This document shows, piece after piece, positions 1-18,757 of a DNA stretch of 32,000 nucleotides. The translations under genes were made by a program, and so were the position numbers. The notes under the pieces were generated by a model that searched no databases, was not told the DNA's origin, and was given only the letters and a program-made list of their open reading frames with translations. This DNA comes from an uncultured archaeon. Its GTDB lineage: Archaea; Asgardarchaeota; Thorarchaeia; Thorarchaeales; CAZPUN01. Within the stretch, counting starts at the first letter, position 1. Every line of letters starts with the position of its first letter. The stretch covers positions 1-32,000 of the forward strand of contig CAZPUN010000050.1 of NCBI GenBank assembly GCA_964589775.1, read 5' to 3'.

Positions 1-901
1 TGGGAGTTTTAATTTGGAGGGGGCATCGTAGTCGGAAATGGTGCCAATAAAATTCATGATTTTGTCTATTATTGCGTAATATCAACTACAGTTATCTGAT
101 AATCGCGGAAAAATACTATTTAGTTTTATATTTGGTATAAATGCGAATAATTTCAAAAATATGGGATAAAGTGGTATTTACGGGCATAATAGGCGTTTTG
201 ATAAGAAAATGTTAGTTTTCAGTTTTTCAATTTGCAACTTTTGCGAGTTCATTTTCGACAGTAGGGGAATGCAACATAAATCAGGAATTGGAGTAGGTGG
301 TATTGGATATGGTAGATTGAGATAGATTCGAATAAACAAGTTCGGGTAAAATAAGGGAATTGGGTAAAAGCACCTATTGCGATAGGATGTAAAAATTTGG
401 GTTAGGATATTTATGCAAGATTAATTATGGATGGATCTTTAGCATGTTGATTTAAATGTGGACACTAGGCGGAAAGGTTTCGAGTTTAGTAGTGAATGAT
501 TTTTGAAACCCAAGATAGCCAGCATACTTAGGAAAAATTTTGAGTTTAGCAGGGTATGAAATAGAGTATCAATATTTTCAACATGCAATTAGAATTCTGC
601 TGAGCAAGTTAAGAATTGAATAGTGTTAATATACATAGGAATATTGAAAATTCCCTTCAAATTAATAAAAACGGCTTTTCAAGAGTATTTCTTGGAACCG
701 AGGCACATAATCTTTGAATACGTTTAGCAAAATAAGAAAAACCGCAATGGATACAAAAAATGGCATTAAAAAAGAGATTATGTGAAGGTATAGTTAAATG
801 ATTTCAGATCTGCAAAAAGTCTTTAAGGATTTATGAAAGCGCGTTTTGCAACATCTTGCGCTCGAGTTATATTCACGTTATCATAAGATGATCATAATTA
901 C

Positions 902-1117
902 AAACTCTGCGAGAAAGCATCGTTTTTCAAAGCGGTGACGAATCGCAGAAAAGCTTATCAATGGTTATACATATCTTATTGGAACTAAACATACTAAAAG
1001 GGGGCTGGAGCGATAATCAAAGCTCCCGTCGGAACACGACTAGTATACGCGTGAAATGGCTACCAATGGATAGCCTATACGCAGAACCCTCGCATCTCAA
1101 TTCGGGGGGCATGTCAA
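902..1117 (+). mobile_element. Non-autonomous IS200/IS605-family miniature element (PATE-like), copy A, with tnpB 3' remnant and omegaRNA-like right end
   Basis: Left end: TTAC (898-901), AAAG (914-917), then hairpin CATCGTTTT-TC-AAAGCGGTG (918-937). Right end: GAAC (1084-1087), hairpin CCTCG..CGGGG, then GGCATG-TCAA (ends 1117). This is the IS608 end layout. Bases 961-1005 read as a frameshifted TnpB C-terminus (VIH..LIG..LNILKGG). A homologous copy lies at 18508-18757. Confidence 0.75.
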
Positions 1118-1370
1118 AAAATAGATCAAAAGTTTTCTCTATTCCTCTACGTACTGTGCACACTTTTAAATACCTTTCATTTTTATTTTGGCGTCCAATA
1201 CCTCTTAAAATATCTTTCCATGTTCCTTATATTTTTAATTTGTATTATATTCATATACTGTTGAAAATCAGCCCGCAAGGATCCCGGATTGAAAGAATGA
1301 CTTAAAGAAAGAAGCATTGTAATGACCGTTGGATTAATTAATAAAAAATGGTGGTGCTACATGATGCAAT

Positions 1371-1949
1371 ATGAATTTCAGTCTCATCTTATTGGCAGGG
1401 GTACTTGTATCGCAGGCAGAATTTGCTGACAAGACACAGCTTGCTGTAATATTTACGGCTGCGAAGGTAGGGCGTCCTATGGCGGTTGTATTCATGTCAT
1501 CAATAGCCTTGATTATGGCTACATTTGTTGGGGTTATAGCGGGTGGGCTTGTTTCCTTTGTAATTCCCACGGATCTAATAACCACGATTGCGGCGATTGG
1601 TTTCATAATTATGGGAATATATGGTTTATATGAGAAAGGCGAGTCAGAAGACGAAGAGAGTGAATCCAACAAGACCTTGTTAGGAATTGTAAGTCTTGTA
1701 TTTCTTGCTGAAATGGGTGATAAGACACAGCTAGCAGTAATTCTTTTATCTGCTCAGTCAGGTGGTTATCTTGAAGTTTTTATTGGGGCATCGCTTGGAT
1801 TGACTTTCGTCACGATTATCGGTGTGATCATCGGTCAAAAATTAAGGCACTTTCCGCTCGAAAAGATAAAAATAGCCGGTTCTATCCTTTTCATAATCAT
1901 TGGTGTGGCCATGCTTTTCGAGGCACTCGGATTCTTTTTATTTCTGTAG
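1371..1949 (+). CDS. GDT1/TMEM165 (UPF0016) family Ca2+/Mn2+ transporter
   Basis: Two copies of the E-x-G-D-K-T motif (EFADKTQ, EMGDKTQ), about 6 TM helices and an acidic central loop. Confidence 0.92.
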   Translation: MNFSLILLAGVLVSQAEFADKTQLAVIFTAAKVGRPMAVVFMSSIALIMATFVGVIAGGLVSFVIPTDLITTIAAIGFIIMGIYGLYEKGESEDEESESNKTLLGIVSLVFLAEMGDKTQLAVILLSAQSGGYLEVFIGASLGLTFVTIIGVIIGQKLRHFPLEKIKIAGSILFIIIGVAMLFEALGFFLFL

Positions 1950-2030
1950 TTTTTGAAACTTTGGCAATTCTTCCGTGTCTCGAAGGCCCTTTTGTTTCTT
2001 GGATTCTTTTCATTTCTGTAGTTTTTGAAA
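1926..2030. repeat. 33-bp direct repeat (2 mismatches) separated by 39 bp
   Basis: 1926-1958 CTCGGATTCTTTTTATTTCTGTAGTTTTTGAAA versus 1998-2030 CTTGGATTCTTTTCATTTCTGTAGTTTTTGAAA; period 72 bp. Confidence 0.9.
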
Positions 2031-2543
2031 TGCGTTCTCAAAGGCATCTACTACATTTTTTGAAATTCCAACAAATACGATACGCTTTGGGAATGCATTT
2101 CCTGCCCTTATATGATTTATCGCTTGCCGCATCATGGCTTCTGTGGCGTGTTCCGGTGTGACGCCGCCAACCCCTGCTCCCAAAGCCGGTAATGTTACGC
2201 TTTCAATTTTTAATCTCTGGCACTCCGCAAATACTGCTTTTGTTGCTTTTGATATGTTCTCTTCGTTTGCGGGCATTCCCGGTTCCATCGCGGGTGCATG
2301 GATCACATATTTCATAGGGAGCCTTCCCGCCGATGTCGTAACTACTTCGCCAATTTGTATTGGACCCTTTTGCATGGCTTCTTTTTCAATCTCGATACCG
2401 CCTTTGCGTTTGATTGCACCTGCCACTCCGGCTCCCATCCATAAATGCGTATTTGCAGCATTTACTATCGCGGTCGTGTCCGATTCAGTAATATCTCGAA
2501 GGGCAATTTCGATTATTTTTCCATTCACGTTGTGTCTATACAT
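2010..2543 (-). CDS. Macrodomain (MacroD/YmdB-like) ADP-ribose-binding/hydrolase protein
   Basis: Motifs DIT, AIVNAAN..L.MGAGVAGAI..KGG, YVIHA and LPALGAGVGG; Shine-Dalgarno AGGAGG upstream. Confidence 0.93.
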   Translation of the reverse strand: MYRHNVNGKIIEIALRDITESDTTAIVNAANTHLWMGAGVAGAIKRKGGIEIEKEAMQKGPIQIGEVVTTSAGRLPMKYVIHAPAMEPGMPANEENISKATKAVFAECQRLKIESVTLPALGAGVGGVTPEHATEAMMRQAINHIRAGNAFPKRIVFVGISKNVVDAFENAFQKLQK

Positions 2544-2837: not shown

Positions 2838-4340
2838 ATGCGAAAAGGAAAGTATGCGATTGCCATATCCGTAGCACTATTGGCATTGTTCATCTTACCG
2901 GTCTTCTTATCTTCGAATCATGCTTCTGCAGCGATCATTAGATTGAACAATGTCAATGCGAGAGCTACCGAGAGTTATGTTGTGGAATCCCCACACAACT
3001 ATCCAAACTATTATGACCACACTTGGACAATTACAAAGTCCGGTGCTTCAAAAATCAAAGTACACTTTACGACCATCTCGACAGAGTATGGTTATGATTA
3101 TGTATATGTGTACGATGCGAATCAAAATCTAATAAATCGCTACTCTGGATATTATACTGATGTCTGGAGTGCGGAATCCTCCGGTGATACAATTTATGTC
3201 CGACTAAAGTCAGACTATTCAGTCACACGATGGGGATTCAAGATCGACATGATCTATTACGAGACCGGTGGCTCTACTGGTGGAGGAGACGAGGATGTTG
3301 TTTTAACCTCTGGTACCGCTGAAAATGGTTATCTTAGCGGAACTGGAGATAAGGATTACTACAAGATTGAAGTCCCCTCAGGTGCGACCCAACTAAAAAT
3401 TGTGACCGATGGCCCCTCATCATCAGACTTTGACGTATATGCGAAATTAGGTTCCCGCCCCACAACCTCCACATACGACTATCGTGCATACACAAGCTCA
3501 TCTGATGAAACAATCACAATCAGCAATCCAGGTGCCGGCTGGTGGTACATTATGGTAAATAGCTACTCTGGTTCTGGTAGCTATTCAATTACTGCCACAG
3601 TGACAACCAGCAGTGGCGGTGGCGGCTCTGGTGGCGATGGTGTTACCAGACGATATGCCGTTATCGTAGGTATATCCGACTATAAGGCCATTAGCGATCT
3701 GAGCTACTGTGATGAAGATGCCTCAGATTGGTACAATTATCTACACAACATGGGATATCAGATTGAAGTCTATGGTGACACACATCAGAGTAATTATCCA
3801 CGCTATGATGGATTAGCAACTGAAGCAAATGTAAAAGCAGCAATTAGCAACATGGTACAAAACGCTGATGCCGATGACATTATTGCCTACATTTCATCTG
3901 GACATGGTTCCGGAGATGGTAATGGCAATTCATATCTATGTATGTGGGATTGCAACTCGGGTGAGAACGGTCAAGACGGTAAGCTTCGCGATACCGAGCT
4001 TGCTGACTTGTTTGCCTCTGCTACAGCAAAGGTCTTTATCTTCCTCGACCACTGCTACAGTGGTGGTATGGATGAAGTAGTAACCCAGAACAGCAATGGT
4101 CACAACGTCTTCTTAACAACCACCTGTACTGCTAACGGATATGGTTATGACGACTCAACGCATCACAATGGTGCATGGACATACTGGTTCCTCGAAGCTG
4201 GTTTGATTAACCACTTCCACAGTGATCCAAACACATCAATGGAAGATGCCTATGCATGGGCTGTATCACAATATCCATACAGTGGTGGAGACACCCCACA
4301 GAAATTCGACGGCGATACAAGTTCATTCTTCTACCTATAA
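2838..4340 (+). CDS. Secreted caspase-family (clan CD, C14-like) peptidase with N-terminal CUB and PPC domains
   Basis: Signal peptide ending ASA/A. CUB-like segment ESPHNYPN..WTI...YDYVYVYD...LKSDYSV..WGFKI. PPC segment DYYKIEVP...DFDVYAK...GWWYIMV. Gly/Ser linkers. Caspase fold RYAVIVGISDY, with SGHG (His) and DHCYSGG (Cys). Confidence 0.85.
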   Translation: MRKGKYAIAISVALLALFILPVFLSSNHASAAIIRLNNVNARATESYVVESPHNYPNYYDHTWTITKSGASKIKVHFTTISTEYGYDYVYVYDANQNLINRYSGYYTDVWSAESSGDTIYVRLKSDYSVTRWGFKIDMIYYETGGSTGGGDEDVVLTSGTAENGYLSGTGDKDYYKIEVPSGATQLKIVTDGPSSSDFDVYAKLGSRPTTSTYDYRAYTSSSDETITISNPGAGWWYIMVNSYSGSGSYSITATVTTSSGGGGSGGDGVTRRYAVIVGISDYKAISDLSYCDEDASDWYNYLHNMGYQIEVYGDTHQSNYPRYDGLATEANVKAAISNMVQNADADDIIAYISSGHGSGDGNGNSYLCMWDCNSGENGQDGKLRDTELADLFASATAKVFIFLDHCYSGGMDEVVTQNSNGHNVFLTTTCTANGYGYDDSTHHNGAWTYWFLEAGLINHFHSDPNTSMEDAYAWAVSQYPYSGGDTPQKFDGDTSSFFYL

Positions 4341-18417: not shown

Positions 18418-18507
18418 ATTTATTACCTTATTTAAATATTTCTTTATGAGCCACGTTTTCTAAAATATTTATGCACCATAGTGTATTAGCCGTTTGGAAT
18501 GATTTAC

Positions 18508-18757
18508 AAATGATCTGCGAGAAAGTATCGCTTTAGAAAACGGTGGGTAATCGCTTAGGTATTCATAATATGTAGGCTCGAAGCACTAAATCAAGTAATT
18601 TTGAGGACGGATGGCGACTTGCGTTTATTGCATCTAGGGCATTCTTGAGAAAATCGGAATGATAAAGTTCTTGAGGGACATGGTAAATATAAACGTAAAA
18701 TGACTATTGCGAGTCTATATGCAGTCATCTCACATCTCAATGCGAGGTAGATGTCTG
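18508..18757 (+). mobile_element. Non-autonomous IS200/IS605-family miniature element, copy B (more decayed)
   Basis: TTAC at 18504-18507, followed by AAAG and a hairpin. 18514-18554 matches 906-946 at 33/41 ungapped, and 18713-18755 matches 1073-1115 at 31/43 ungapped. Confidence 0.7.

Follow-up and report, generated by a model that had tools for sequence, protein, structure and literature searches.

The window analysed here is a 32,000-nt stretch of contig C50 in the assembly of a Thorarchaeote. The assembly is a MAG of 2.16 Mb with 35% G+C, divided into 64 contigs and 96.75% complete, and the genome is the only representative of its family in the genome collection searched. The first ~900 bases of the contig (1–897) contain no ORF longer than 60 aa, and two similar stretches of ~30 nt are located near 470–500 and 530–560. 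Direct reading of the sequence between 600 and 1500 places a protein-free element of 216 bases at 902–1117 on the + strand, followed by genes for a transporter, a macro-domain protein and a secreted protein (Table 1). The sole ORF crossing the element, 961–1305, runs into the flank and matches only a trace of the TnpB tail. Apart from a tRNA-Cys, no RNA gene was called in the window, and no Rfam family was found for the element at gathering or E-value thresholds.

Table 1. Features of the element at 902–1117 and of its surroundings (positions in the window; "with" joins the two arms of a helix).
Feature	Position	Strand	Basis
TTAC, target of insertion and site of left-end cleavage, outside the element	898–901	+	Junction alignment and tnpB-bearing elements
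Left end	902–972	+	898–972 aligns to L122 1013–1094, 73% identity
Remnant of the promoter-proximal region of the parent	part of the left end, 902–972	+	L122 alignment
Outer helix enclosing IP-L	906–912 with 943–949	+	Fold, pair counts
Left guide AAAG, immediately 5' of the left hairpin	914–917	+	Sequence
Left hairpin IP-L, 8 bp	918–925 with 930–937	+	Sequence, fold
Last ~150 nt of the parent: degenerate TnpB C-terminal codons and right end; putative omegaRNA scaffold region	968–1117	+	968–1116 aligns to L122 2589–2737, 72% identity
R1 module, five conserved helices	1006–1116	+	Covariance model, 108 bits in the window copy
R1 helix, GGAGC/GCTCC	1007–1011 with 1022–1026	+	
R1 helix	1028–1031 with 1037–1040	+	
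R1 helix, outer of the nested pair	1049–1052 with 1079–1082	+	
R1 helix, inner of the nested pair	1058–1062 with 1071–1075	+	
Right guide GAAC, immediately 5' of the right hairpin	1084–1087	+	Sequence
Right hairpin IP-R, 8 bp with one C.T mismatch; also an R1 helix	1088–1095 with 1100–1107	+	Sequence
Terminal cleavage tetranucleotide TCAA	1114–1117	+	Sequence; family consensus TCAG
Right flank, putative guide of a read-through omegaRNA	1118–1137	+	Inferred from TnpB systems (PMC10055086)
GDT1-family transporter gene	1371–1949	+	
Macro-domain protein	2010–2543	-	
Secreted 500-aa protein with CUB, PPC and caspase (Peptidase_C14) domains	2838–4340	+	

The signals that a sequence-only reading of this DNA had noted at the two ends (TTAC, AAAG with the left hairpin, GAAC with the right hairpin, and TCAA), as well as its internal stems, are all in place. 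The element terminates 10 nt from the foot of the right hairpin. An end-to-end check of the element found no terminal inverted repeats, and the flanks of the aligned copies show no target duplication. The window copy departs from its family in ending with TCAA where the consensus is TCAG, in a mismatch in each of the end hairpins, and in a shortened helix at 1028–1040. In the left end, a weak TATA-like box may be located near 955–962. A direct repeat of 20 nt with 75% identity is present inside the element, between the left-end region (948–967) and the nested hairpin (1053–1072). It may be due to chance or, by analogy with what has been proposed for the PATEs of Haloquadratum, a relic of a core deletion mediated by repeats.

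The element belongs to a family of repeats. Iterated nhmmer searches of the host genome return 50 matches, ~37 of them full-length (190–280 bp) and 13 partial; these ~50 copies are found at unrelated loci. In an alignment that includes the flanks, the similarity among copies begins directly 3' of TTAC and ends one base past TCA, and the sharp boundaries at 898/902 and 1116/1117 are common to the copies, as the sequence-only reading had expected of a true element. Junctions read by eye show an exact TTAC before ~22 of the 34 full copies, with most of the others one base off, and about half of the host copies have G as the base following TCA. As no empty site was recovered, the position of the exact junction is taken from the alignment of the many copies and from the homologous parent. 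The copies fall into two size classes, of which the long class has a two-hairpin module of ~70 nt that is absent from the short class, including the window copy. A second copy in the window (18506–18756, + strand) is of the long type, is preceded by TTAC and is much more degenerate, with 51 bits in the covariance model described below and 20/31 pairs intact. The only near-identical population contigs, L112 and L114, carry the same insertions as the host genome. Contigs Ga0256914, from the source metagenome, have 99.8–99.9% identity to the host genome. In 86 other genomes of the order, neither DNA searches nor the covariance model gave a match.

The + strand of the element folds with a z-score of -4.3 relative to shuffled sequences, versus +0.2 for the - strand. 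RNAalifold returned an empty structure on a MAFFT alignment of 33 copies; therefore, ten helices were written by hand and tested by pair counts. In these helices 75.8% of the cells pair, compared with 36–45% when the partners are slid by 1–3 columns, and both end hairpins covary across the copies. A covariance model, R1, was then built on the shared 3' module (1006–1116 in the window), as the sequence-only reading had suggested, and it identifies 41 copies in the host genome. The alignment A3 contains 52 modules fitted to R1, namely 33 host copies together with tnpB-linked, Thermoplasmata PATE and metagenome copies. In A3, 84.1% of the cells are paired versus 30–48% in slid controls, a percentage that leans upward because the alignment was fitted to the model. 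Compensatory change is seen in 27 of the 31 pairs and involves all five helices, with 159 compensatory cells against 57 expected, a number reached by none of 500 shuffles. Compensatory changes are nevertheless plain by eye in the two helices that are not involved in TnpA recognition.

Homologs of this module are found outside the host. An IUPAC pattern made from the most conserved columns of the family was scanned over genome, metagenome and viral collections, and the matches were checked with R1. This check upheld nine metagenome contigs and, from a Thermoplasmata MAG, contig L089. On L089, a broken tnpB with HTH_OrfB_IS605, OrfB_IS605 and TNB zinc-ribbon domains precedes the module and overlaps it. 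L099 carries a broken tnpB of the same kind, preceded by a left end homologous to that of the Thorarchaeote family. The tnpB genes of L089 (4039–5020, - strand) and L099 (oriented 2882–3848) have in common a frame break just before the zinc-ribbon codons, which means either that a single decayed copy was sampled on both contigs or that they share a pseudogene.

Using the L089 protein as query, ~40 full-length TnpBs of roughly 400 aa were found. Intact tnpB genes, encoding 407–415 aa, are present in G109, G137, G152, G136, G144 and G088 (of the Thermoplasmata order searched with P0003). R1 scores 80–115 bits at the 3' end of every intact tnpB (L120–L122 and L124–L126) and has no match on TnpBs of ~35% identity. 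At seven Thermoplasmata or metagenome loci, the R1 homologs cover the last ~55 nt of the intact tnpB and extend to the right end. The terminus is TCAG in 7/7 tnpB-linked copies, and TTAC precedes the left end in all four tnpB-bearing loci for which the left end was recovered (L122, L125, L099 and L120). The tnpB-associated homolog that the sequence-only reading called for is accordingly found on intact genes in Thermoplasmata. Among 400 Asgard genomes, a close tnpB is found in one only, as a pseudogene interrupted by four stops (L152; G281:C71:1393–2403). The same genome, G281, has five weak R1 modules.

One of the loci with an intact tnpB, L122, is a complete element with the order TTAC, left end (AAAG and hairpin), tnpA, tnpB and right end (TCAG). 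Its tnpA encodes a protein of 139 aa with a Y1_Tnp domain (PF01797, E 4e-29). The tnpB (1498–2721, 407 aa) overlaps tnpA, encodes all three TnpB domains, and has its stop codon inside the loop of the right-end hairpin. An overlap of the tnpB stop codon with the right-end hairpin is the textbook position of an omegaRNA. The window copy aligns to the first ~80 bases of L122, just upstream of tnpA, and to its last ~150 bases; therefore, ~1.5 kb has been deleted, comprising the whole of tnpA and tnpB as far as about codon 364. This agrees with the proposal of the sequence-only reading that everything had been lost except the two ends and an RNA scaffold. Residues 375–406 of the L122 TnpB align to 996–1094 of the window with 59% identity (tblastn). 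The N-I-L codons of the RuvC-III motif are found at 988–996, in a frame that differs from that of the downstream tail because of a 1-nt deletion. Of the frameshifted trace of a HAD.xGA.NIL motif reported earlier from the letters, the N-I-L part and the tail are thus recovered, and the HAD.xGA part was not reproduced.

Gene-less elements of the same layout also occur beside the intact parents. Elements of this kind, PATEs, were defined in Haloquadratum walsbyi as IS605-derived, protein-free elements with near-terminal palindromes and without inverted repeats or target duplications, and some of them keep C-terminal tnpB sequence (PMC3119063). In G152, G144 and G136, PATEs of ~205 bp are found next to intact parents, and the R1 matches outnumber the tnpB copies. 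Many gene-less copies, both in the Thorarchaeote and in Thermoplasmata (L153–L158), have a 5-nt insertion in the loop at 1012–1021 of the helix 1007–1026. None of the tnpB-linked copies, in which this loop belongs to the coding sequence, has the insertion. It may be the mark of PATEs that form a lineage older than the split between the two hosts, or it may have more than one origin.

The comparison with known systems is in agreement with this parentage. The element has near-terminal palindromes, lacks inverted repeats and target duplication and is too short for a transposase, as expected of a PATE. Its tetranucleotide target, its hairpins with 5' guides and its ends homologous to those of a Y1 TnpA element place it in the IS200/IS605 family. 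IS608 (ISHp608) of Helicobacter pylori inserts 3' of TTAC, has AAAG 5' of its left hairpin and is cleaved at the right end 10 nt 3' of the right hairpin (PMC3201880). The window family shares the TTAC target, the AAAG left guide and the 10-nt right spacing, and its parents share the gene order, tnpA followed by tnpB; the likeness to IS608 that had been drawn in the sequence-only reading is therefore borne out by the target, the guide tetranucleotides, the hairpins and the right spacing. On the other hand, the right guide is GAAC and the terminus TCAG (TCAA in the window copy), and the distance from TTAC to the foot of the left hairpin is 16–17 nt, compared with 19 nt in IS608. The sequence similarity between the two is limited to these signals, and the window copy is gene-less.

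Meers et al. 2023 reported that PATEs often encode omegaRNAs for which TnpB is required in trans, and described omegaRNA-encoding PATE-like elements in Geobacillus stearothermophilus (PMC10055086). The window family is similar to the PATEs of Haloquadratum and Geobacillus in the deletion of the core from an IS605-type element, in the retention of the guide-RNA segment at the tnpB 3' end and in its many heterogeneous copies. It differs from them in that its host is an Asgard archaeon in which neither tnpA nor tnpB was found, its nearest intact parents belong to a different phylum (Thermoplasmata), and all of its copies are old (at most 88% identity). Based on its position and homology, the module would correspond to an omegaRNA scaffold: it lies over the 3' end of the parental tnpB and has a covarying structure, while no cognate TnpB was found in the assembly. 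As in the ISDra2-type TnpB omegaRNA (reRNA), the segment is formed by the last ~150 nt and extends over the stop codon of tnpB and the hairpin of the right end, and a scaffold of several helices would be followed by a guide derived from the flank. The window scaffold differs in that its cognate TnpB was not found in the genome, and Rfam lacks a family for comparison.

In such a system, the TTAC at 898–901 would act as the TAM for TnpB and the right flank would supply the guide. For none of 34 copies does the 16-nt flank guide match a second site next to TTAC in the host genome. The 20-nt flank of the window copy has exact matches in two viral contigs, in the same gene in both and with TTAC in front of neither. 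The exact identity spans 22 nt, between 1117–1138 of the window and 7648–7670 of L150 or 7432–7454 of L151 (IMG/VR contigs). By a rough estimate, about two viral matches are expected for an A+T-rich 20-mer. These matches lack TTAC and involve an A+T-rich word, and they were judged to be due to chance rather than to mark a guide target. The search of the flank against the genome and viral contigs that had been proposed with the sequence-only reading consequently gave no second TTAC-adjacent match.

The state of the family in the Thorarchaeote was examined through its possible partners and its decay. Pfam models gave no match to Y1_Tnp, TNB or OrfB_IS605 above the cut-off in the host genome, tblastn with the TnpA and TnpB of L122 on the host assembly returned only the C-terminal trace within the PATEs, and no tnpA or tnpB fragment was found at the contig ends. 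Two long ORFs (C7 and C21) with weak similarity to OrfB_IS605 (E about 0.01–0.05) were rejected as TnpBs, since they lack a TNB domain and no Pfam match supports them. The identity between nearest neighbours among the host copies reaches a maximum of 88% with a median of 72%; as no pair of copies exceeds 88%, amplification has not been recent. Copy-private substitutions amount to 0.61 per paired column versus 0.68 per unpaired column, and 32 of the 38 that fall in stems break a pair. Host copies keep on average 23.7 of the 31 pairs and the window copy keeps 26, compared with 29–31 in copies linked to an intact tnpB and 28 in the broken L099. Stem decay in the inserted copies thus looks neutral, which places the constraint recorded by the covariation on the active source lineages.

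We favour, with a probability of roughly 0.88, the reading of 902–1117 as a PATE that arose from an IS605/IS608-type (IS200/IS605) element by internal deletion, encodes no protein, is inserted 3' of TTAC and is now a stranded fossil. Deletion of a core of ~1.5 kb would have left the left end, with AAAG, the hairpin and the promoter-proximal region, joined to the last ~150 nt of the parent. The latter, which overlap the 3' end of tnpB and the right end in the parent, would form the omegaRNA scaffold. In the past, a Y1 TnpA acting in trans would have moved the element into TTAC sites by single-strand "peel and paste", and the right flank, included in read-through transcripts, would have guided a TnpB that was likewise provided in trans. 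At present, the copies in the Thorarchaeote appear to be partnerless and to decay neutrally, and the nearest intact parents and better-preserved mini-elements are those of Thermoplasmata. The parental tnpA/tnpB element that the sequence-only reading had set out to find is present there (L122); it was not found in the host assembly, and its empty sites were not recovered.

The alternative that survives best, although it is unlikely, is that the element is still functional: an unassembled part of the chromosome, a plasmid or a virus of the same organism would encode a TnpA and/or TnpB able to mobilise it and to take its RNA as a trans guide. Such a partner may exist because the assembly is a 64-contig MAG, at 96.75% completeness, and multi-copy ISs, plasmids and viruses are often unassembled or unbinned. 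The window copy is also among the better preserved (108 bits, 26/31 pairs), and PATEs coexist with active parents in Thermoplasmata. However, fragments of tnpA or tnpB are found nowhere in the assembly, contig ends included, the limit of 88% identity between copies argues against recent amplification, the stems seem to decay neutrally, and the single close tnpB among 400 Asgard genomes is a pseudogene. Mobilisation in trans and the supply of a trans-acting guide, which the sequence-only reading had offered as something the element could still do, are for these reasons and for the lack of a second flank target retained only as a possibility. A broader proposal, which we consider improbable, is that the ~40 orphan scaffolds are not inert, with a nuclease or transposase still provided by a virus or plasmid that co-resident Thermoplasmata share, or that some of them are now host small RNAs. 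If this were true, the 5-nt loop insertion would point to cross-phylum transfer of the mini-element itself.

It is very unlikely that the scaffold of the window copy has been exapted by the host, for example to serve as a small RNA or to act as promoter or terminator of the GDT1-family transporter gene 250 bp downstream. The element is located upstream of this gene in the same orientation and retains a strand-specific fold; however, the copies are scattered and their structure shows no sign of purifying selection. The module occurs in no relative within the order, so that conservation across species cannot be shown. An unrelated cut-and-paste MITE, or an independent structured ncRNA family merely resembling IS200/IS605, would fit a multi-copy, hairpin-rich repeat with no Rfam match, but is scarcely credible for an element that lacks inverted terminal repeats and target duplication, has both ends homologous to a tnpA-tnpB element and keeps a TnpB C-terminal coding trace.

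Taken as a PATE, the element in the Thorarchaeote is old, stranded and most likely an inert fossil. This leaves the known working of such elements unchanged, and omegaRNA-encoding PATEs have already been described (Meers et al. 2023). Our literature search found no paper on this PATE family in Asgard archaea, and a family of IS605/TnpB guide-RNA mini-elements is here documented in an Asgard archaeon. It accounts for ~50 hairpin-rich intergenic repeats of the host genome that could otherwise be mistaken for new RNA genes. The location of the closest intact parents in Thermoplasmata lends modest support to IS traffic across phyla in sediments, and the family provides a clean example of an omegaRNA scaffold outlasting its nuclease.
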